Source: Eremomyces bilateralis CBS 781.70 (lineage: Eukaryota). Taken from it: a DNA stretch of 64,000 nt. The translations under genes were made by a program, and so were the position numbers. A model generated the notes under the pieces. That model had not been told where the DNA came from. It saw only the letters and a list, made by a program, of their open reading frames with translations, and made no database searches. The stretch lies in assembly GCA_010015585.1 (NCBI GenBank), contig ML975149.1; one strand, written 5' to 3'. Shown here piece by piece: positions 2,715-64,000 of the stretch; positions within the stretch are counted from its first letter, which is position 1; each line of letters starts with the position of its first letter.

Positions 2715-4230
2715 AGACTGCCCGGAATTGCTCCAGGAGCCCTGCCCTGAGGATCATCTTCGCTGCTTGCACTGCCATTGACGAGCTACAGAGAATGCGC
2801 TTGATGTCTACGCATGGTTGCCTGCCTGACCACATTCGGTCTCGTTCGTCGGTCCAGTTTCAGCATTCAAGGAGAATGTGCCGCACCGTTTGCGGCCCGT
2901 GACCGCACTGGCATTGGTCGGTATCGGCCCTGTTGATGGCGTGGAGATACGCCGGGAGGCTGATCTTGCCCGTGCGCATCTGAGTGACCACTGAACTGAT
3001 TGCTCTGTGGGTTCCAATGCGTGTGTCGAGCGTCGCTTTCCCAGGCCGGACTCCGAGCTTGAAGAGCTCTCTACCATGCTTGGTCGTTTCCCACGATCTC
3101 GCCCATTCGCTTCTCATCGTTTGACGGATGGAAGATTTTGAGGTGGCTATTAAGGTCCGTAGAGAGTCTGGAGCCGGCGGAGGTTGGGGCCGTGTTGGCA
3201 CGTCCGAGTTGAAGCCCGCGGCTTCCTTTGCGGCTTGATCTGCTAATTCATTGCCTGGTACTCCGACATGTGCCGGGATCCATCGGAAATGCACATCCCA
3301 CCCGTGGCTATGGAGCGCGTCGAGTGCTTGTATGGCCTCGGCTAGGATATACTGACCCGACCAGTGCTTGAGGTTCCGTATGGCTTGGATGGCCGCCTGG
3401 TTGTCGGCGAATATGGTGCACTTGCCGGGGGTGATGACAGTCGTATGGATATCGAGCATCATTTGCAATGCTAACACCACTCCCCTGAGTTCAGCCGCGT
3501 ATACCGTGGACGTGGTGGATGTGCCCATGTATTCCGTCTGCCTCATGTGGATGCCACTTAACTGGAGCGTGGGTGCTACTGCGGCTGCACCGACGGGGCC
3601 GCTAATGCAGCTTCCGTCTGTGTAGATGCGTATCGTTCCTGGCTCTGTGGTATCGTGGTCCTTGATCGCTTCTTCAGCGGATTCGTTGATATTGATGACT
3701 GGTGGTGTCCACCACGGCGGGACGACGTGCGTTAGGCGTTTCTCGAGTCGCTCGAGCGAAACTTTGTACTTACGCTCTAAGATGCTCTAGAGTTGGTCAA
3801 GGGGCCCTGCGCGTTGTATCTTCGGCAGGTCCTCCCTGGGACGCCGTTGTTGTCCTCAGGTGCGGTCATGTCGTCGTACAGCGGGGTGGTTATGATGCGC
3901 ATTGTGGCTTCTAATGCTGTTTGTCCGAGTTGCAGTTGTGCAGGGAGCAGATGTGCTTCTATATCGACCGCTGCACCGGCCGTTGTGCGGAAGGCTCCAG
4001 TGATGGATTGGGCTGCTCGTCTCTGTATCCTCTTGATCGCAGGTACCATAGCGTTGCCTCGACCACCGCCAGGGGCGTGCCATGCCGAGCAGCCATAGAG
4101 CATCTGGGGGACGACCATTGCCCTGTCGTAGGTTGATGGTCCCCGTTCCCCACGTTGAAGAGGCCAGAGCCGACAGGGCGGAGAGGCGCTTCGTAACCCT
4201 TGTTTCTATCTCCTCGCGGTGGTAATCCCA
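2715..4230 (-). mobile_element. 5'-truncated non-LTR retrotransposon (Tad1-like LINE): RT C-terminus, RNase H, CCHC knuckle
   Basis: [81 protein letters not shown]; frameshifts and stops present. Confidence 0.92.
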
Positions 4231-9165: not shown

Positions 9166-9879
9166 TCAAAGCATGCCATAGATGATCAACCCAAAACCCC
9201 CGGCCACCATATTGGCGACAGCCCCTTCCATCTTCACAGCTGCGCCAGTAAACGTAGCCAGGGAGGACGAGGTGCGAGTCGCGGACACTCGAATTGTGCC
9301 AGGCGCCATACCACCGGTCGTTGACCGTGCACCATCACAATGCCAGTGATCGCCGTGCGGCTCACAGCCATAGGATGCCGTCGGACTTGGGTGCGGTGCA
9401 CCCGTCCCTGAAGCGTGGTCCTCGCCGTGGGAGGAGGGCATAGCGCCAACAGCGGAGCTCGATGTAAAAACGATCGCTGACTCGGCACTGGAGACCGTCA
9501 CGCTCACGGGAACGCTGGTGGTGGGGTGCGAAACCGGACCCTCGCAGTCCCTGAAGACCTTAACATGGACGAATAGAAGACGCGCCCGGCAGTGAAACCT
9601 ACCAGTGGTCATCATGCGGGACGCACCCAACCGACTCGGTCGGGGATGGTCCAGGAGAGACGACGGAGGCGGCGGACGTGGGGGGCGCAGCGGGCCCCTC
9701 GCAGTGCCTAGGAAGAGTTGTGAACATGAGTTATAAAGTAAGTGGTTTGCAATGGCAGCTTACCAGTGGTCACCATGCGGGGCGCAACCGAAAGACTCAG
9801 TGGGAGATGGCCCAGGGTCCTGTGCGAGGGCAGTGACAAAGCTGCAGAGAGCGGAAAGGAGGACAGCGGACAAGCGCAT
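9166..9879 (-). CDS. Secreted, probably GPI-anchored protein with three PSPTxSxGCxPHxDHWxCxG repeats (putative metal/zinc binding)
   Basis: Exons 9879-9764, 9707-9603, 9550-9166. Signal MRLSAVLLSALCSFVTALA; repeats CAPHGDHWHC, CVPHDDHWDC, CEPHGDHWHC; Ser/Thr linkers; C-terminal FTGAA plus hydrophobic tail. Confidence 0.85.
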
Positions 9880-10035
9880 ATTGATAGTAAACAAGCAGTT
9901 GTAAGCTTCACGTGTGCCCAAGTTCGAGAAGATCGGCGGATATCAGTCGAAATATGATACTCGCGACGTCTTTACGGTCAAAGTACGTATGTATGCACCG
10001 GCTCCAAAGAATAAGTATAAGTAATCAAGAGCAGT

Positions 10036-10540
10036 TCGCCATCAAGGTATAAAGGGGTGACCTATCGTCACGATGAGTCCTATTGCCAAGTAGCCGGGCG
10101 TTCTGGACTAGGAAAAGAGCGTGGGATTCTGCATTGCTCTACTTCTGGATACGCGACTCGTAGCACCCCACACGCGATATCGGATTTATTTCATAATGAT
10201 ATTAACACTCAGTCGGATCGATTCCATTAAGTAGAACCTCAGTGTCGAACTCTTAAGTCCATTTAATGAGCTGTGTATTTTCTAGAACTGGACTCCAGGA
10301 CAAATCACTTTGATACGAAGACGAACCAGCAGTCAAGTACCATAGTCAAGCAGGGAAGATCGCATGGGTGGCCCAAGCTCGAGCTCTCCAGCTTCACTGC
10401 TTCAGTGCTTCACTGCTTCAGAGCTTCTCGGCTAGTATTTCTCTTCGTCTCTCAGTTCTCGCCATCAAGGTATTCCACTGCATCGCCCGCAGAGACTGGC
10501 ATCAATTACTCACTCACTCACTCACTCGCCATCAAGGTAT
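10036..10540 (+). promoter_or_regulatory. Three identical TCGCCATCAAGGTAT 15-mers (10036, 10459, 10526), putative ZafA/Zap1-type zinc-responsive elements
   Basis: Exact triple repeat in a divergent promoter. CAAGGT is the core of the Aspergillus ZafA binding motif. Confidence 0.7.
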
Positions 10541-10713
10541 TACCACAAACCGTCTACAGCTTGCACAATGGTGCGCCACGTAAAAGAACATTTTCATACT
10601 GTGTAGGCCTGCATAGCCAGGAAGCCCAGGATATATGTAATGGAACTGACTGAGGACGGCATACCAGAAGTTTGTTAAGTTTCTCTCTGTACAGTGTTTA
10701 TTATATTCATGTC

Positions 10714-12361
10714 ATGGCACATCTGCTGCTCTTCATCTTGAGCCTATCTATCGTCATTTATTCGACTTTTGCGGTTACTCTGGATGGATCGCTCTGTCTA
10801 GCCAAAGAACAGCCTGAGCTAACGCTAAATGAGATCGCGGTACGTTGCCCATTTGCTATTTTACTTACACGGATCTCCTGGATTCGACATCCCTTTATGT
10901 CAAGTTGGGATCTAGTGGACGTTGATCGAGCATGCGCAAAGCAGGGACAGCAGGCCCTTTTCGGCAATCTCGTGGCATACCATATCACGTCTGTGACCGT
11001 TCAAAAGCCGCCAAAGAAACAAAGTTCCCCGCGCCAGCGCGAGGAGAAAGTTCGCTTGCGCAGCCGGCTGGAGCGCCAGAGAGGTAGATGGAACTCGCAT
11101 CACCCACGATATCGCCTTCTTGACGCCATCTATGGCTTCTCACGCTATCAAGAGCAAAACGGAGTCGAACTCCGGCGATGGAAAACCTTATACAAGCATG
11201 TTTCTATACCACAGAAGGCAGTACGTCAGAACAATACAACAACGTAAACTGGACGCTCACTCATCGGGCTCACCCTACGCTAGATGCTTGAGCATGTAGT
11301 TTATTACTCAAAGAAGCTCGAAGCCACCGAACAGCTAATCCGGAAGAACCAGAATCTGTGCGACATGATTGTGCAGAATGCCCTACGGTTCTACGAAGTC
11401 AAGCAGATCGAGTTGGACCAGTTTATCAAAGACGCGGACACGAATAAACGGAAGGCAGATCGAACGAGTGTCTCGCAGGCGCTGAAACACTTCGTTCGTG
11501 ACTGGGCGAGCGACGGCGAGCATGAGCGAAAGGCTACGTTTCCATGTATTCTCCGAACACTGGGAACCTTATTTCCACAGCGAGCTGCAGAGCCAGGGAA
11601 ACACCAGCGGGTACTGATCCCCGGCGCTGGGCTTGGACGGCTGGGTTACGATATTGCGGCCCTTGGAGGTGAGTTTCCTTCTCCACTATGGGCTGCTGGA
11701 GGTGGCGACACTATTGATGTTCGCGACTAAAAATCCATGTCAGCCCGCATTGCTAATGCTATGACTAGGGTTCGACGTAACCATCAACGAATGGTCCATG
11801 TATATGAATGTCGCTTATCGCGTCCTCGAAACGGAGGAGGACCTCTCACCCTTCACCTTCCATCCTTTCATTGACTCCTGGTCACATCACGCTACTTCCG
11901 CCGACATGCAGCGCGCTGTATCCTTCCCCGACCGACCCCTCAACACTTCGTCCGTCGTCCTCGTCGAAGGCGACTTCACCACCGAATTTCAGACCGGACA
12001 CAGCGACTACGATGCCATCGTCACACACTTCTTCATCGATACGGCACGCAATCTGATGAGCTACCTCGAGACGATCCACCGCACCTTGCGACCGGGCGGC
12101 TACTGGATCAACTCGGGTCCGCTGCTGTACGGGAGTGGGCCGTTTGTGCAACTGTCCCTGGATGAAATCATCTTGTTGTCGGAGGCATTGGGATTTGAGT
12201 TTATTGAGACGAGTCCGAGGTGCGGCGAGGTCACGTTGTCAGGGAAAAAGGTGAGGTCGATGTCGGCAATATATGGGTCGAATGAGAGGGCACTGAACAT
12301 AAATGGATATAAGGTGCAGTTTTGGGTTGCGAGGAAGCGGTTAAGGAACGGAGATCGGTGA
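10714..12361 (+). CDS. N2227-like / carnosine N-methyltransferase (CARNMT1)-family SAM methyltransferase with hydrophobic N-terminus
   Basis: LKHFVRDWASDG..ER, VLIPGAGLGRL, NEWSMYM, HPFIDSWSH, EGDF, VTHFFIDTARN, GGYWINSGPLLY. Introns 11221-11283 and about 11669-11769; the 5' exon structure is uncertain. Confidence 0.88.
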
Positions 12362-13122: not shown

Positions 13123-14579
13123 AGTCAACGGACCCACTTTCCATGCAACCTAGATTCCGTGCACCCCTTGAGATAATACGTAGATACTTAGATCGCTTTT
13201 GATCAATGAAATAAATTCAACAACACCATCTAATATTATCAGGATGCCTCGTATTAATGAAGAGGCAGTCCAACAAGCTATTAATGCTTTTCATGGCCAA
13301 GAATTTGACTCGCTGAATAAATGTGCGGATGCGTACGGTATCAAGAGATCTACACTCCGGGACAGACTCAACGGCAACGATTCCCACCAAAATAGTTCGA
13401 AGAAACTTCAGAAGTTATCTCCCGTGTCCTCAGTGGCTCAAGAAGAAGTTTTTGCCAGAAAGCAAGCCCATGAACTCCCCGGCAGCGAACGGCGCGCAGG
13501 AATGCCGCCTATTAATATGCGATGGGCACGGCTCCCACGCCACGGTCGAGTTCATGAAGTTGGTCAAGGACAACCGCGTATTCTTTGTTGTTTTTGCCCC
13601 CCCATTGTTCCTACCTCCTCCAGCCCCTTGACGTCGCGTGTTTCTCGCCCCTAAAGTCCAAATATCATAAAGAGCTCTCCCAATTAGCATCATTAGATGA
13701 TTCCGCACCTGTAAAAAAGCATAATTTTATATATATATACTCTAAATCCCGAAAAGAAGCTTTGAATTCGTACAATATTCGTGCCAGCTTCCGTGGAACT
13801 GGAACGGTTCCGTTCAACCCAGACAAAGTATTAAATAGCACCCAATTAAACGAGAACCATCAAATACAACGTCATGTGACTCCAGAGCCGCAGTATACTT
13901 ATGTATTCCGTACGCCCAAAGGCCTCAAAGATATATACGATGCCAAATTAGACGAAATGGGGGGCCGGGATTTCAGGAGGTTTCAGGGGAAGGTCGCAAA
14001 GGCACTGGCAGAGAAGAACACGGAAACCGCCCGACTCAAAGCCGAACTTCAAAGGGCTGAAAATACAATTTCAGACTTAGGAGGGCTTGCTAGCAAGAAA
14101 AGGAAACGGGTTCAGCCCAATCTGAACGAACGATTTGTTCAGATTGACCAGATTGTTGCGGCTCAGGAGGCAGCTAGGGGAGAGGGAACATGTCGGAACT
14201 CCGCGGCTATTACTTAGTCACCGCCCCTTGTAGATTACATAAGATTACATAAGCCTGGGTATATATACCCGTCAAGGTAAACTATGTACTTCTGACCGAA
14301 TACAAGCATCTCACTGCCTCTGAACAGGTATCCTATTGTTTCCGTGATTGATTGACACGCCAAAACGATCAACAGAACAAAAGGCTGCAAAACGCCTTCA
14401 AATTAACCCGGAGGAAACGTCTTGATAATTGCAGAAGGCAATGTTTAAGTCACTCTATCCACAATTTCAATTACAGCTATAGAAAAATATATGGTGGTGG
14501 TTACATTCCGCAAAATCCATTCGTCTTTGTGTCCTATTGGAGTTGTGGTGGGGGTGCACGGAAACTGGGTCCGTTGACT
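13123..14579 (+). mobile_element. Fot1/pogo DNA transposon, internally deleted
   Basis: TIRs AGTCAACGGACCCA.TTTCC.TGCA at both ends, each flanked by TA. The HTH (ADAYGIKRSTLRDRL) is joined almost directly to LICDGHGSH and LQPLDV motifs, with frameshifts. Confidence 0.92.
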
Positions 14580-16290: not shown

Positions 16291-19174
16291 CTAGTTTAAA
16301 CTCTCTATAGTGCTGTAGAATCTACGTGATAAATCCCACACGCTCAAGTTTTCGATAGCCTGAAGGGCAATGGCCTTGAGTTTTGCGTAGCTGCCATCTT
16401 CGTAAATATCGTGTGCGTCGTCAATGGAAGGATAGCCACAGTTCTTGTTGATCCAGAGGACAACTGCATTCTGCTGAGCAACTGTACGAGACCATGGGAT
16501 ACGGTCGAGCCGGACGGAGTCTTCACTTTCGCTAGCTTCATTGGCCAAAGTGCCACTAGCCGTGGCGGGAGTGCTGAGATTGACAGCGCAGGATTCCCTG
16601 ATTGAACTACGCGTCTTCCTCTTTTCTGGGCCGAACTTGACGAATGCAAGAACATATGCATAAGCGTCAAAAACCCTCATTATCTCGCATGGGGTGTTGA
16701 CTGTGCATTCTCTAGAAATTGCAATGATGGATGCCGCATGGTATACGAGTCGTCTCGCATGGACAGGATCACTAGCGAGGACCATTTGCAGCCTGGTCTT
16801 TGCCATATCCAGCTCCATGTCGTTTGGGCTCGTCCCGTTCTGGCAGATAAGTATGATCATTTCCATCATTTCTTGTTGGCTGTACAAGTTCGCATGATGA
16901 TAAATAAGGCAAGTAATGCTGATTGTGTTAGGTACCAGTCAATTCAGTCACAGTTTGGGCACTTACTTGACATGAACAAGGTCTTGAGGTCGGGACGGTC
17001 TTACTGCAGAATCATGCAGCAATTTCAGACTCTGGAACAGATATTTCCTGAGAGGTTTCTGAGACTCTGTGAACGAATTCAGGGCGTAAAGGTTTAAGAT
17101 GGAGTTGTCCATCTCCTTCAGATTCCAGAAAAGTCGAGCGATGGTTTGAGCGCAACAGCGCTTCCACCATGATGGCACATTGTCAGAAATCGCTTTTCCG
17201 TTCAAGATTTCACGAAGGAGCGGCCGAAAAGGAGCTCCTTGAAGTGAATGTCCTGTTAGGGACGCCATGGACGCCCATGCTACGGCAGATTGCGCCTCCC
17301 AAAGGCTCTCATCGCAGGGCAGCCTGTCTGGAAGTTCTTGCAAGCTCACCACGCCTCGCTTGGTCGTCAGAGTCGAGAGACTGTTGTCATATTCGAAAAC
17401 ACTCCACGCGAGTCTCTTTGCCATCTCAGCAGCCCGCCACTGATGCCATGCAAACTCGAGTTTTGCAGCATCTTTGGGGTCGAGGTCTTCAATGGAAGGG
17501 ACCTTTAAGCTCCATGGATCGGCGATGTTTATGGAGCGGTACACGCCGGTTCTCCTAAGAGCTTGCACCAGGATTCCGCGGAAGTTGTCGGCGCGCTCAT
17601 GGAGTGACGGAACGGCGACACCCAAGCAGTAGACTTGATGATACAAGGATGCAGCTGCGAACTCGATGTTCTGATAGTCGGCAGGTCCGCGTGCATACTG
17701 CGATTCCACTTCTAGTCAGTAAGATTCCAGGTAGCACGCAAAGTCGATGGAGTATACCGCTTCGTTCAAATGCCGAAAACATATCTCGGCCAGCATGCTT
17801 GACTCCGCGTCCAGCCCCTTCTTCCTATGATACTTTGTAGACCCAAGACATGCTAAGGCAGCTATGAGGTGTGTGGGACATTTCGCAATGTTCCATGTCG
17901 CCTGGTGCATGACCGGTAACCCAGGATAGAACTCCGCAAAGTAAATGGTGACCATCTTTTCGAGATGGTGGGCCGCGGCGCTATGTTCCGGTGAATCAAT
18001 ATCTGACGGCAGATACGGTTTGGAGAGGACGCTGCTGATACTGCTCGCGAGTGTTGTACTCGCAACCGAAGAGCACTGGCTAAGCCTTCGCCTAGGAACT
18101 GTTGGCTGATTCACAGTGTGATGCCTGTTCACTTGACCAGGGGTCGGAGGAACGGGAGCGCCTGAAAACCATGGCAACGGAGAAAATTCCGGGGAAGCTA
18201 AGCGCGCAGCTTCCGCGAAAGCTGTTGCTGTTGGTGCATCCATCGATTGGCCGAAAACAGTCTGTTGAGCAAGCATTGCGGGTGGGAGCGCAGAGCCCTG
18301 TTGATCGAATCCAAGCCAATCTATTCCCCAGGGAGCACAAAGGTCCCAGTCGAGGTTGGCGAGATCCAAGTCAGATATGCTTCTTGGATCGTCTAATTGG
18401 TCTATCAAGGAGCTATTGTCTTGCAAGTCGATTCGTGTCGGCTCAGATTGCTGAATGTCCCCGAGTGGTGAAGAATCAGGAGGAAGATTGAGACCATATA
18501 AGCCTCTGTTCAGTCTCGTTGGATTAGGAGGTGGGTGCTGGATGTCATTGAGAGGGAACTCCGGTTGCTGGGCATCGATGCTTCCATCGTCACGAGATGG
18601 TCGGGATGAAGACATGGACGCTTGGATCAAGCTTTCTGGACTGTAGTGGGTCGCTCTGGGCGAAGCAGATGCATCGTTCCGGGTACTTTCTGAAGAATGA
18701 TGCGCAGATTCTGCCACATTTACGTTGACATTGCTCGACAGATTCTGGAAAATGCATTCCGTGCCTCTAGTGACGCAAGAATCGCAAGGCGGTGACCGTG
18801 AACACTTTAGCTTCCGTCGAATGCAATTCTGGCATGAAGTTTTCCGTATATTCGGCAGTGTGATGCCGTGAACCAACCGGTCATGACGCAAAAGTATGTC
18901 CTTTCGGCTGAAAAGCTTCCCGCATGGTTTACATTGGAAGCCCTCCGTCCGACCAGCTCCACTGTCAAGAAAAATCAGTAATGGATCGAGTGAAGCATCG
19001 GAGACGTACCGTGAATGAAGTTGTCGGTGCCGCTGGAGATGCGTCTGGCGCGTCAATTTCACCCCACATATATCGCATTGGAATGCTTTGCGGACAGGCT
19101 CTTCCTATCACCACTTGTGATCAGTGTTGGCTGGAAGGATTGAATGGAACAGACCATACCGGTGCTGCTGGCAT
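16291..19174 (-). CDS. Transcription factor: two C2H2 fingers, Zn(II)2Cys6 cluster and fungal-specific TF domain
   Basis: FQCDICGVKLTRQTHLQRHRQLH, FQCKPCGKLFSRKDILLRHDRLVH, CQNCIRRKLKCSRSPPCDSCVTRGTEC, YFAEFYPGLPVMHQAT, LPCDESLWEA; multi-exon. Confidence 0.88.
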
Positions 19175-20223: not shown

Positions 20224-22063
20224 AGTTCGACCCCTGCCTTCCTGCGCAACCGACAAGCTGCGCACTTCCACCATTTCCAGCAAACCTCTTCCACGCTCTA
20301 TTTCTCCCCCAAAACGGATTAAATTTGAAATTCTACTAAGCAAGACGTAAAATCCCCTACAGTAATCTCCTTCGACCTTTTTTCCAGATCAGTTTCCGTG
20401 TTTTTACGTTGGTAATCTTCCTCCGCAACCACCGGCCTGGTCCTGAGCAGCCTTGATCTCCCTAATGCGTGCGAATCGATCATTCAGGTCTATCTGAAGC
20501 TTCTTTTTCCTTTTAGGTGCTAAAACTGCCTCAAGGTGTGTCTCCAAACTCGCGATTTTGGCATCGGATAACGCCTGGCGGGACTGAAGCAGTCTGATTG
20601 CCTTAGCCGCCTTGCCAAGAACCCTCTTCGTGCCTTTCGCGACGCGACTATGCTTCGATATTACCTTCAGAGCACTGTAAACCTGTTTAGGCTTGACAGG
20701 CGTGGAAAAAGGAGTCGTATGACGCGTTCCGGTAGCTGGTGCGAGCGGCGATGCGGGTGCTAAAAGTGATGGCGGCGGCGGGGGGACCGACCAGTTAACG
20801 AACCGGTTCTGGAGGCCCTTTTCAACGTCAAATGGAACCATGCCTGCAGCTCTCCAGCCTGATCGAATCGTACGGCTACAGAGCCGGTTTTCACGGGCTT
20901 TTGCGTACAATGAGACGAACTTCCTCCGTTTAATTGGTAGGGCCTCGGCGATATAGGCCGCGTTGCGAAGAAGGGTCTTGTCGAACCGCCTCAGTGGTGA
21001 GAAACAGGCGAGATCCAGTGGCTGTAAGATGTGGGAGGTATGGGCAGGTAGGAAGATCACCACCACCTTACTTATCTTGCATAAATAGAGGAAACCCACC
21101 GTGACATGGCTGCCGTGCCCGTCAAGCACCAAAATCCTATATTCCCCCTCCGTCGCGGTTTCCTTGAGGAATAGCTCGCGCAGCCACTTCACAGCGATGT
21201 TATTCGAGGTCCATCCGTTCGGTGACACGTCGTAAAACCAATTTGGCGCGTCTGACGGGAACCAGGAGCTCTGGATAGAAGCTCCTTTCTGGATCACGGC
21301 TGGGCTAAGCGCCCGCCCTGTCGCGGACACCGTTTCGATTACGGAGATCCATTCCCTATTTTCCTGGCCCACCAAGGTGGCGACCGCCTTCTGGGAGTCT
21401 GCGATAACCACAGAATTGGATCCTATCCCTAATCCTATGCCCACTTCATCCATATTATACGTATCGTCGGGGTGGACATCGTGCTCGACCACCGCCTTGT
21501 GAAAATGGTCGTAAAACCGTCGAATGTTTTCCTCCATTGCGGCATGGTGGCGAACAGCATCTAAATTCTTGCCTAAGCAGGCTTTGACGCGTGGATTTCG
21601 GTGAAGGAAGCGAGGAATCCAATTCTTCCCAAAGGGGCTCTGGTCGGCCTGGAGGTCAAGGACTCGCGCAGCCATTTCCCGTACACGGGCGTGGGTAGGG
21701 GGAAATCCTTGAGCATCCGACTCAAGGATCCAGTCTGTTAAACAGGTCTCTTGATCCGGTGTAAGGCGTTGATTGCCCTGTTGGGCGATAGACCGTGAAG
21801 CAGAGCCTTTTAGGCGAAGGCGTAGGGTAGATTCGCTAACTTCAAAGAGCCGGGCGGCATCTCGAATTGAGTTAGCCTCGCCATCAGCAAAAGCACGTAA
21901 GGCACCTGATATCCGTTCATTGTGAGATGCCATATTAGGAAATAAAATTTATTATATAAATAACGCGTGTCTGGGGGGTTTTAACGCGTCTTGGATGGCG
22001 GTGGTCCAAAAGATGGTTGGTGGGTGCACAGGAAGGCAGGGGTTGAAGTTGAACCGTTGAACT
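20224..22063 (-). mobile_element. Fot1/pogo DNA transposon, near full length (1840 bp)
   Basis: Inverted ends AGTTC...ACCCCTGCCTTCCTG.GCA flanked by TA on both sides; contains a 509-aa transposase ORF. Confidence 0.9.
20404..21933 (-). CDS. Fot1/pogo DDE_1 transposase
   Basis: HTH-psq and CENP-B-like HTH regions; NMDEVG, SPNGWTSN, LVLDGHGSH, HTSHILQPLD. The extreme C-terminus may be frameshifted. Confidence 0.92.
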   Translation of the reverse strand: MASHNERISGALRAFADGEANSIRDAARLFEVSESTLRLRLKGSASRSIAQQGNQRLTPDQETCLTDWILESDAQGFPPTHARVREMAARVLDLQADQSPFGKNWIPRFLHRNPRVKACLGKNLDAVRHHAAMEENIRRFYDHFHKAVVEHDVHPDDTYNMDEVGIGLGIGSNSVVIADSQKAVATLVGQENREWISVIETVSATGRALSPAVIQKGASIQSSWFPSDAPNWFYDVSPNGWTSNNIAVKWLRELFLKETATEGEYRILVLDGHGSHVTVGFLYLCKISKVVVIFLPAHTSHILQPLDLACFSPLRRFDKTLLRNAAYIAEALPIKRRKFVSLYAKARENRLCSRTIRSGWRAAGMVPFDVEKGLQNRFVNWSVPPPPPSLLAPASPLAPATGTRHTTPFSTPVKPKQVYSALKVISKHSRVAKGTKRVLGKAAKAIRLLQSRQALSDAKIASLETHLEAVLAPKRKKKLQIDLNDRFARIREIKAAQDQAGGCGGRLPT

Positions 22064-62459: not shown

Positions 62460-64000
62460 ACTCAATTCCGAGGAGGAGGACATTCTTGCTTCCTGACAAG
62501 AGCTTGCACAAGTTTGCCCCGGTCGAGATGGTGCGCAGGTCGAGGACCCTGATCGTATTGGCGATCGAGAAATTGACCGTGCATATATCCTTGATGGCAT
62601 GATCGGTAACTATCTCGACCTCGACCTCGAGTTCTGGAAGCGGATGAAGGCGGACTTTCCGGCCAACTTAGTAGCCGTTGCTGCTGGTACATATGCTAGC
62701 CTAAATGGCAAACAGAAACTCTGCCAGGACCTCGTCATGCGTCACTTTCACGCCTACCAGGAGCACCGGCCTCCGCCTCAGCTCCTGCTAAGCATCGATG
62801 GTAAGGGTGGGACAGGGAAGACGTACCTTATTATGATCCTTTCCGAGGCGCTTGAGACTGTCGCGAGTGCGATAGGCCATACTACCTCCCCAATCATTCG
62901 AGCTGCTCCTACCGGTGTGGCCGCGCACAATATTTCGGGTAGGACCCTTCATTCTCTATTCCGCCTCACTCCAAAGGCCAGGCAGTACGAAAAGTTGTCA
63001 AAGCAAGCCGCTCAGGCTATTCAGGCTGCATTCAAAGGTGTTCAATATATCGTCATTGACGAGAAGTCAATGGTTGGTTTGAAACTCCTTGCTTGGATTG
63101 ACCGTCGATGCAAGGAGATTTGGCCTGATCGTAGTGACCTTCCATTTGGTGGCCTCAACGTTATCCTAGCTGGCGACTTCTTCCAGCTGCCGCCTGTTGG
63201 CGAGAAGCCTCTCTTTACCGGCCAGAACAACATTTCAAAGAACATCGATGAAAGTCATGGCCATAGACTCTACCAAGGCTTCTTCCGAACGATTGAGCTA
63301 GACGTTGTTGTCCGTCAGCAGGGACCTGAGGAGGCAATGTTTCGAAATGCACTCGAAGACTTACGAACCGGGAATGTCACGGTTGATAACTGGCGCCTTC
63401 TTGCCACGCGAGTTGCTTCTACCCTCTCGCCCAGTGACGTCCAAAGCTTCCAAGGTACCCTTCACGTCTACGCCAAAAAGGCAGACGTCATTCAATTCAA
63501 CCATACACAGATGCGCGAAAGTGGCCGACCAGTTGTCCTGATGATTGCAACTAATGAGGGGAAAGATGCAGCGAGCGCCACTACCGAACAAGCTGGTAAC
63601 CTGCAGAACATCCTCCCTATATCTATTGGTTGCCGTGTCATGCTTACCGAGAATATCTGGACCGAACGAGGATTGGTAAACGGTACTATGGGTAATGTAC
63701 GCGACATGGCCTGGGAAGCGGACGTTGAAGATCCCCGGAAGTCGCCTCCTACGGCATTATTGGTTGCGTTCGATAGCTATAATGGTCCATCCTTTCGGGA
63801 GGTTAACGGCGAAAAGCTCGTGCCTATATTCCGGTCCCGCCGAGACTTCGTTCACGGTTCTGTCGCCTGCCTGCGTACCCAGTTTCCATTGGTTCTAGCG
63901 TATGCTATCACCATCCACAAGAGCCAGGGAATGACACTTGAAAAGGCAGTGTTAAACATCGCTGATAAGCGGGACTTTGCGCCGGGATTAACTTATGTAG
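62460..64000 (+). mobile_element. Helitron-like PIF1 helicase region (runs off the window; Rep domain missing, 5' part disrupted)
   Basis: IDGKGGTGKT, AAPTGVAA, GRTLHSLF, IDEKSMVG, PFGGLNVILAGDFFQLPPV, RVMLTENIW..GLVNGTMG, RTQFPLVLAYAITIHKSQGMTL. A stop and a frameshift lie near 62490-62600. Confidence 0.85.

Follow-up and report, generated by a model that had tools for sequence, protein, structure and literature searches.

Divergent genes for a predicted His/Cys hairpin surface protein and a CARNMT1-family methyltransferase in Eremomyces bilateralis, with putative zinc-response motifs in the shared promoter

The two divergent genes and their products

We analysed a stretch of 64,000 nucleotides (the window) from contig ML975149.1 of Eremomyces bilateralis CBS 781.70 (GenBank assembly GCA_010015585.1), in which two genes lie head-to-head with 834 bp between their start codons. 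The gene on the minus strand (9166–9879; ATG at 9879, stop at 9166) has three exons and codes for a protein of 201 residues with exactly three CxPHxDHWxC motifs (residues 32–41, 67–76 and 136–145), referred to here as the hairpin protein. The gene on the plus strand (10714–12361; ATG at 10714, stop at 12361) also has three exons and codes for a methyltransferase of 494 residues belonging to the N2227/CARNMT1 family. An earlier reading of the same DNA (the sequence-only reading) had described a signal-peptide/glycosylphosphatidylinositol (GPI)-type protein with three such motifs facing an enzyme of this family, and both genes were found exactly where it had placed them. The hairpin gene was modelled from RNA contigs and translation, and the methyltransferase gene from RNA contigs. 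All four introns of the two genes were present as GT..AG joints in contigs of a public run (X1), which identifies the run as RNA and confirms transcription of both genes and the splicing given here.

Exon 1 of the hairpin gene (9764–9879), placed by translation, an RNA contig at 9763–9952 and a joint at 9706/9763, holds the ATG, the predicted signal peptide and hairpin 1 as far as GDHW, with the Trp codon split by intron 1 (9708–9763, 56 nt, GT..AG), which an RNA-contig joint locates between HW and HC of hairpin 1. Exon 2 (9603–9707), from RNA contigs and the model, contains the rest of hairpin 1, a linker and hairpin 2 as far as DDHW, and is followed by intron 2 (9551–9602, 52 nt), located by an RNA-contig joint between HW and the next residue plus Cys. 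Exon 3 (9166–9550) carries the rest of hairpin 2, a Ser/Thr/Pro-rich linker with a short HGEDH stretch, hairpin 3, a GPI-type hydrophobic tail and the stop. The introns of hairpin genes sit inside the metal-binding motif, after HW and before one more residue and the Cys, so that in every case the Trp codon is split, and the intron after hairpin 1 was at the identical place in all ten homologous loci read (L001, L003, L004, L009, L012, L015, L017, L019, L021 and L023, from the metagenome scan described below). Hairpin 2 of the window has a second intron at this same place, suggesting that the hairpin unit was duplicated together with its intron. The public NCBI protein of E. bilateralis for this gene (P0001, partial, 146 residues) is built of exact pieces of the minus strand of the window, with a second intron that differs from the splice in the RNA contigs and removes the end of hairpin 2.

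Judged by hydropathy only, the hairpin protein has a hydrophobic N terminus (residues 1–19) and a hydrophobic C-terminal tail (approximately residues 187–201) behind small residues. This layout is the usual one of a GPI-anchored wall or membrane protein and suggests the same here, with a predicted anchor; Ser, Thr, Pro, Ala and Gly make up 106 of the 182 mature residues. The AlphaFold model of a homologue, P0003 (mean predicted local distance difference test score, pLDDT, 59), consists of a signal or N-terminal helix, three beta-hairpins exactly at the motifs (pLDDT of the hairpin blocks 77–79), disordered linkers and a C-terminal helix. Binding of Zn2+ on the cell surface is the most likely role of the hairpin protein.

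The Pfam family PF28209.1, a recent entry which the Atlas names His-triad_hairpin, was precomputed on P0001 and on all 27 database matches to the hairpin protein. When we used a copy of the Pfam library that lacks PF28209, no family matched the hairpin exons of the window at E≤0.1, and five homologues gave chance-level matches only at E≤1. In the Atlas, three PF28209 clusters (55, 88 and 60 members) belong to Ascomycota and are automatically labelled as GPI-anchored or hypothetical proteins, and a profile search of 1.84 billion representatives yielded 293 clusters of the family at 50% identity (E≤1e-3). Members of the family were found in, among other named fungi, Aspergillus clavatus (ACLA_043630), A. 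rambellii, A. ochraceoroseus, Penicillium samsonianum (N7471_002145), Thermomyces lanuginosus, Clonostachys and several Sordariales. The repeated HxxHxH of streptococcal Pht surface proteins (PF04270) resembles the H-G-D-H-W-H of the hairpin protein, and PF04270 was also assigned to 18% of one related fungal hairpin cluster in the Atlas; however, Pht proteins are bacterial, much larger and without the flanking Cys pair, and the direct match was insignificant (E 0.69). Pht proteins bind zinc and have been linked to zinc uptake.

In the methyltransferase gene, exon 1 (10714–11220) codes for a signal-like N terminus (residues 1–23), a variable linker and the start of a CARNMT1-like helical N-domain, exon 2 (11284–11668) for the N-domain and motif I (PGAGLGRLG) for S-adenosylmethionine (SAM), and exon 3 (11769–12361) for the catalytic core (NEW, FFIDTA and GPLLYG) up to the stop; RNA-contig joints define the introns at 11221–11283 and 11669–11768. 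The contig of this transcript starts at 10699, preceded by adapter sequence and 15 nt 5' of the ATG that opens the hydrophobic N terminus. A further intron at 10840–10906 in exon 1 was rejected, as both candidate acceptors read give a stop and one RNA contig spans 10699–11220 unbroken. None of the 120 database matches listed was a methyltransferase of at least 344 residues from E. bilateralis, and the enzyme seems not to be annotated at full length in public data.

Exons 2 and 3 matched the Pfam family CARME (N2227, PF07942) at E 8.4e-17 (61.8 bits) and E 2.2e-34 (119.5 bits), respectively, both above the curated cut-off of 27 bits. Exon 3 matched the structure of human CARNMT1 (5yf0) at E 7.8e-20, and a profile of 16 fungal homologues aligned over its whole fold at E 2.2e-63. 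NEW of the window enzyme aligned with the human N-E-W at chain positions 181–183, which holds the Post-I Glu (human Glu229), and human Phe313 and Asp316 are kept as FFIDTA, invariant in the 16 aligned fungal homologues. The likeness to human CARNMT1 and yeast YNL092W, which N1-methylate histidine in carnosine and in C3H zinc fingers, extends therefore to the CARME match, the whole fold, motif I, the Post-I Glu and Phe313/Asp316. Asp316 of CARNMT1 is reported to select the tautomer for N-delta1 methylation (bioRxiv 10.1101/2024.07.18.604158), and the available part of PMC12275196 describes a role for E229 and the methylation of zinc-coordinating histidines in Cys/His zinc fingers, in agreement with the substrates that the sequence-only reading had named. 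Unlike CARNMT1, the window enzyme has a signal-type N terminus followed by a linker, and would probably be lumenal instead of cytosolic or nuclear.

Homologues of the enzyme occur throughout Pezizomycotina, with 288 at E≤1e-10 among 1160 candidates and, in a second search, 756 at E≤1e-30 among 8000 candidates. The Eurotiales named above for their hairpin proteins were not represented among the methyltransferase-cluster members listed, which were 15 of 17 and 15 of 31 in the two largest clusters. We fetched 164 of them and classed as full-length-like the 107 in which an HPRxRLL motif lies 70–160 residues from the start, setting aside 57 (22 without HPRxRLL as written and 35 truncated or extended). 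A hydrophobic stretch was found within the first 40 residues in 99 of the 107, and in 96 of these 99 the flank before it is more positive than the flank after it (means +1.8 and −1.9). In the window enzyme residues 1–23 are the sole strongly hydrophobic stretch; a signal-type segment and a linker of 50–80 residues precede the CARNMT1-like fold, and a single NTS sequon lies at residue 356. The hydrophobic N terminus, which had been noted for this one protein, is thus a conserved feature of the family with the charge polarity of signal peptides or type II anchors, a polarity that would place the catalytic domain on the lumenal side. Table 1 of PMC12943516 also counts an N2227-like protein among what it terms the "secreted proteins" of Fusarium oxysporum.

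Putative zinc-response motifs in the shared promoter

In Aspergillus fumigatus, the footprint consensus of the zinc regulator ZafA is given as DYYVYCARGGTVYYY, with an essential CARGGT core, and zinc-response (ZR) motifs are described as acting up to 1.2 kb from the start codon, three of them driving both genes of the divergent aspf2-zrfC pair (PMC6070888, the part available to us). The same core is reported to be bound by ZapA of Talaromyces marneffei (PMC13733205, likewise in part). The sequence-only reading had pointed to three CAAGGT elements between the two genes and to ZafA as a factor that binds them. Its account of the core agrees with PMC6070888 and the three elements are present, with cores at 10043, 10466 and 10533, each of them inside one identical 15-mer, TCGCCATCAAGGTAT, that fits the ZafA consensus. 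By itself, CAAGGT is no more frequent in the window than chance predicts (28 copies against 28.3), and the 13-mer core of TCGCCATCAAGGTAT had no further copy without mismatch in the 64 kb; a triple identical element in one promoter is far beyond chance.

Compared with the consensus, motif 1 (GCCATCAAGGTATAA, 10038–10052, plus strand) agrees at 13 of 15 positions and is 159 bp from the ATG of the hairpin gene. Motif 2 (GCCATCAAGGTATTC, 10461–10475, plus) agrees at all 15 positions and motif 3 (GCCATCAAGGTATTA, 10528–10542, plus) at 14 of 15; they lie 224 and 157 bp, respectively, upstream of the 5' end of the methyltransferase transcript. All three are at most 662 bp from both start codons, within the 1.2 kb over which such motifs act. 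The RNA contig of the hairpin gene extends to at least 9952, and run X1 gave no contig over 10297–10677. Between motif 1 and motifs 2 and 3 there is an RNA contig at 10080–10287 with a depth of approximately 6, compared with thousands for both genes, which might reflect an occasional start of the hairpin gene further upstream, or else traces of DNA.

To compare promoters, we scanned metagenome contigs with an alignment of the hairpin family, which gave 32 loci falling into 20 groups at ≥90% nucleotide identity. One representative of each group was then searched for consensus-like motifs (at most two mismatches outside the core) in at most 1 kb before the hairpin gene. There were 36 motifs in 18,472 bp upstream of hairpin genes and 43 in the remaining 143,679 bp of these loci, i.e. 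1.95 versus 0.30 per kb, an enrichment of approximately 6.5-fold (Poisson P 7e-18). Many of the motifs upstream of homologues read GCC[AG]TCA[AG]GGT, as in the window. The supplementary data of the ZafA study in A. fumigatus mention neither N2227 nor carnosine nor trehalase, and several rows labelled "GPI anchored protein", which give no sequences, could not be assigned to the hairpin family.

Neighbours of hairpin genes in other fungi

The genes next to the hairpin gene were identified by tblastn of five methyltransferases against the 32 loci and by Pfam. Groups with at least 2.3 kb upstream of the hairpin gene were taken as informative, which left 14 groups, six being too short. A CARME methyltransferase was the neighbour in four of the 14 and a ZIP transporter in eight; two groups had neither (L001 and L028, the latter with almost no downstream flank) and none had both. 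A methyltransferase-like fragment in L011 (E 1e-4 to 9e-6, on a 1.4-kb contig) was too weak and was not counted. In three of the four linked groups the methyltransferase and hairpin genes are divergent, as in the window, with 963 bp between the start codons and two perfect ZR motifs in L004-7, 939 bp in L021 and 609 bp in L002/3, while in L009 they are in tandem with the enzyme downstream. A signal-like N terminus was present in all four linked methyltransferases. When the four linked loci and the window were compared all against all by tblastx, keeping high-scoring segment pairs of at least 40 residues and 45 bits, the enzyme and the hairpin gene were the only genes in common in all ten comparisons.

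To place the linked enzymes, we computed a quick maximum-likelihood tree of the last exon (approximately 200 residues) with 41 rows, 36 of them picked from the 164 homologues to represent three classes. The L004 enzyme fell in Eurotiomycetes next to Thermoascus (82% identity), the L009 enzyme inside the Aspergillus/Penicillium clade of Aspergillaceae (support 97), and the window enzyme with Patellaria, another Dothideomycete (support 99), while the L003 and L021 enzymes, 78% identical to each other, formed a separate branch (support 100). These placements show the linked enzymes to be the ordinary Pezizomycotina orthologues and no special paralogue, and by this tree the linked loci belong to at least three separate lineages. 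The L003 and L021 contigs have the same sample prefix and each carries a divergent pair, with no other gene in common; they could come from two related fungi, or from one genome in which the pair was duplicated as a unit.

A neutral adjacency, inherited as synteny or arisen by chance, would agree with the absence of linkage in many genomes, and L003 and L021 are perhaps not independent cases. Against it, immediate neighbourhood of two given genes is expected by chance in about 2 of 10,000 genes, compared with four of the 14 groups plus the window, and the pair recurs, in two orientations and without any other flanking gene in common, in Eurotiomycetes, in a Dothideomycete and in one more lineage, so that we regard neutrality as quite improbable.

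The tree bears as well on the proposal of the sequence-only reading that the pair lies in mobile cargo, i.e. that it arrived by transfer within a mobile element. Transposon relics do occur nearby: an RNase H fragment (2860–3786, minus), a Tc5/pogo-type DDE_1 transposase fragment (13184–14217, also given as 13558–14217, plus) and a second DDE_1 fragment of this type with an HTH_Tnp_Tc5 domain (20404–21948, minus). However, no captain-type recombinase or element core was found in the 33 open reading frames (ORFs) of at least 150 residues that were scanned among the 51 listed, element boundaries not being part of the search; the pair stands elsewhere in different surroundings, and the grouping of the window enzyme with Patellaria is what vertical descent predicts. 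The proposal was not borne out, and transfer as cargo seems hardly probable at all.

The alternative partner of the hairpin gene, the ZIP transporter, was found in L012, L015, L016, L017, L018, L019/20, L022/23 and L024, divergent in seven of these groups and tandem in L017. The neighbouring ZIPs carry N-terminal CH.HG motifs of the ZrfC/Zrt1 type, and the promoters of these pairs hold two to four ZafA-type motifs. By analogy, the ZIP–hairpin pair looks like an undescribed counterpart of aspf2-zrfC and PRA1-ZRT1. The hairpin proteins encoded next to ZIPs have two (once three) hairpins and a linker rich in His, Asp and Glu, whereas those encoded next to methyltransferases, that of the window included, have three or four hairpins and no such linker.

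Current understanding of how fungi scavenge zinc rests mostly on Pra1/Aspf2 with Zrt1/ZrfC. The zincophores Pra1/Aspf2/Zps1 of Candida albicans and A. fumigatus resemble the hairpin protein as secreted or surface His/Cys-rich proteins under Zap1/ZafA control, typically encoded divergently from a ZrfC-type ZIP with several CAAGGT-core motifs. The same ZIP arrangement was found for the hairpin gene in the eight groups just named; in the window and the four linked loci, however, the partner is the methyltransferase. The hairpin protein also differs from these zincophores in sequence, no relation being found with the Pfam library used, and in build, being made of 10-residue hairpins, a disordered stalk and a GPI-type tail. 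It may act like a zincophore without being a member of the Pra1/Aspf2/Zps1 family.

Alternatively, the hairpin protein could serve copper or another metal, or have a structural or adhesive role in the wall, with CAAGGT bound by a different factor. Cys/His motifs bind copper too, and most of the protein is a Ser/Thr/Pro/Ala/Gly-rich stalk like that of many wall proteins; this is nonetheless improbable in view of the 6.5-fold enrichment of motifs matching the full 15-bp ZafA consensus upstream of homologues and of the ZrfC-type ZIP partner in eight of the 14 informative groups. Both the motif enrichment and the ZIP neighbourhood argue that the hairpin family is expressed in response to zinc and has a role in zinc acquisition, which we consider probable with good confidence.

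The window also contains a ZIP gene (PF02535, 34776–36389, plus), 22 kb from the pair, which is without ZrfC-type N-terminal motifs and only 35–38% identical, over short stretches, to the ZIPs adjoining hairpin genes elsewhere; one CAAGGT lies approximately 120 bp before its likely start and fits the ZafA consensus poorly (three mismatches). A transcription-factor gene (16291–19104, minus) with C2H2 fingers, a Zn2Cys6 cluster and a fungal-specific transcription-factor domain lies 4 kb beyond the methyltransferase. Between 42 and 60 kb are housekeeping genes (RPN1, RIO2, EXO84, an MT-A70 methyltransferase and a mitochondrial carrier), and a PIF1-like helicase ORF (62497–63999, plus) runs off the end of the window.

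A candidate zinc-starvation pair

The best explanation of these observations, for which we see a little less than an even chance, is a zinc-starvation gene pair whose methyltransferase acts on zinc-binding histidines in the secretory pathway. Under zinc starvation, two secretory-pathway proteins would be expressed from one bidirectional promoter carrying three Zap1/ZafA-type elements. One would be a GPI-anchored surface protein with three disulfide-closed His-triad hairpins on a disordered Ser/Thr/Pro stalk, capturing Zn2+ in the manner of Pra1/Aspf2 or Pht. The other would be a CARNMT1-family catalytic domain placed by its signal-type N terminus in the lumen of the endoplasmic reticulum (ER) or Golgi, where it may N1-methylate histidines of secretory zinc-binding proteins, the neighbouring hairpin protein being the prime candidate, and so tune their metal affinity or the hand-over of the metal. 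We infer zinc-dependent expression, zinc binding, the lumenal location and the enzyme–substrate relation, the last being the weakest step.

Two known enzymes offer precedents. METTL9, in the part of the literature consulted, is described as N1-methylating histidine in HxH motifs of zinc transporters and of S100A9, with an effect on zinc binding, although it belongs to a different methyltransferase family, is an animal enzyme and involves no gene neighbourhood. For filamentous fungi, NHMT (AN4663) of Aspergillus nidulans shows that histidines of secreted proteins can be methylated in the ER in a SAM-dependent manner; it modifies the N-terminal His of lytic polysaccharide monooxygenases (PMC10349129). 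The sequence-only reading had taken NHMT for a relative of the window enzyme, and this did not hold: the available part of that paper presents a seven-transmembrane protein with a spermidine-synthase/METTL13-like domain, unrelated to the enzyme studied here, and N2227, CARNMT1 and carnosine are never mentioned there.

Several findings weigh against a zinc-starvation pair of enzyme and substrate. The expectation that pair and promoter motif would be conserved was borne out in part, by the pair in four of the 14 metagenome groups plus the window and by the motif enrichment, and failed in the named genomes. In all eight named species for which both proteins were listed, mostly Sordariales, the two genes are not adjacent. 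They are on contigs of unequal length in Achaetomium (29,798 versus 62,736), Parachaetomium (153,581 versus 92,245), Chaetomidium (56,133 versus 13,066), Madurella (5,469,829 versus 5,635,063), Humicola hyalothermophila (8,302 versus 7,699), Sodiomyces alkalinus (2,523,972 versus 7,534,047) and Boeremia (35,144 versus 2,526,334, the records possibly coming from different assemblies), and in Staphylotrichum they are on one 15.4-Mb contig, 1,444 locus tags apart. The enzyme is also far more widespread than its linkage to the hairpin gene; together with the eight unlinked species, this means that it must have other or additional substrates. In the substrate pocket, human His347 is replaced by Gly (GPLLYG) in the fungal family, the window enzyme included, and human Tyr386 stands opposite an aliphatic residue in a weakly aligned stretch, indicating that the fungal pocket differs from the human one; these changes argue against carnosine as the substrate, not against membership of CARME. 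The region upstream of the enzyme's own gene in L009 has a weak motif only (three mismatches), and L003 and L021, as possibly related organisms or one genome, reduce the number of independent cases. The supply of SAM in the lumen is an assumption, and expression in run X1 says nothing about zinc.

The principal alternative is that the two genes are co-regulated neighbours with no enzyme–substrate relation, the pair persisting through one zinc-responsive bidirectional promoter and the enzyme being a general secretory methyltransferase that acts on something else, e.g. on ZIP ectodomains, on Pra1/Aspf2-type or other His-rich proteins, or on a small molecule. The presence of the enzyme throughout Pezizomycotina and its separation from the hairpin gene in the eight named species speak for this, as do the divergent arrangement with ZR motifs between the genes in three of the four linked loci and the window and the precedent of divergent zinc-regulated pairs such as aspf2-zrfC, described in PMC6070888. 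However, the tandem arrangement in L009 implies that linkage survived loss of a shared promoter, the five linked loci share no flanking gene, which argues for selection on the pair itself, and the known protein substrates of the family are zinc-coordinating histidines in Cys/His motifs, as the neighbour offers. We hold mere co-regulation to be somewhat unlikely, and the most serious competitor of the enzyme–substrate pair.

Within the zinc-starvation reading, our confidence differs from one part to the next. A functional tie of some kind between the enzyme and the hairpin gene is rather probable, as argued by a neighbourhood that recurs in two orientations, from Eurotiomycetes to a Dothideomycete, with nothing else conserved. 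N1-methylation of the hairpin histidines by the neighbour in the secretory pathway is possible at well below an even chance; it is favoured by the entry signals on both proteins, by the conservation of Asp316 and by the preference of CARNMT1 for zinc-coordinating His in Cys/His motifs. A complex prediction with residues 75–458 of the Patellaria methyltransferase, SAM and two hairpins of P0003, run without alignments, gave no answer (score 0.02, mark 0.34). More generally, and tentatively, since we think it somewhat unlikely, filamentous ascomycetes may have a second secretory histidine methyltransferase, of the CARNMT1 family, with the conserved role of N1-methylating metal-binding histidines of a hairpin family that would be GPI-anchored and induced by zinc starvation, and perhaps of ZrfC-type ectodomains, setting zinc affinity or release at the cell surface; the two genes would then form a module that is a fungal extracellular counterpart of METTL9.

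Our search of the literature, in which matches were judged mostly by title, brought up nothing that deals with the hairpin family, with a fungal CARME enzyme bearing a signal or with the pair. The data suggest that fungi have a second, widespread family of zinc-regulated surface proteins, encoded beside ZrfC-type transporters, and they make it possible to test whether histidine methylation is linked to zinc capture. Should the enzyme modify the hairpins, extracellular metal capture would for the first time be seen to be tuned by histidine methylation, a near-universal enzyme of Pezizomycotina would gain a function, and the one known secretory histidine methyltransferase, NHMT, would be joined by another.

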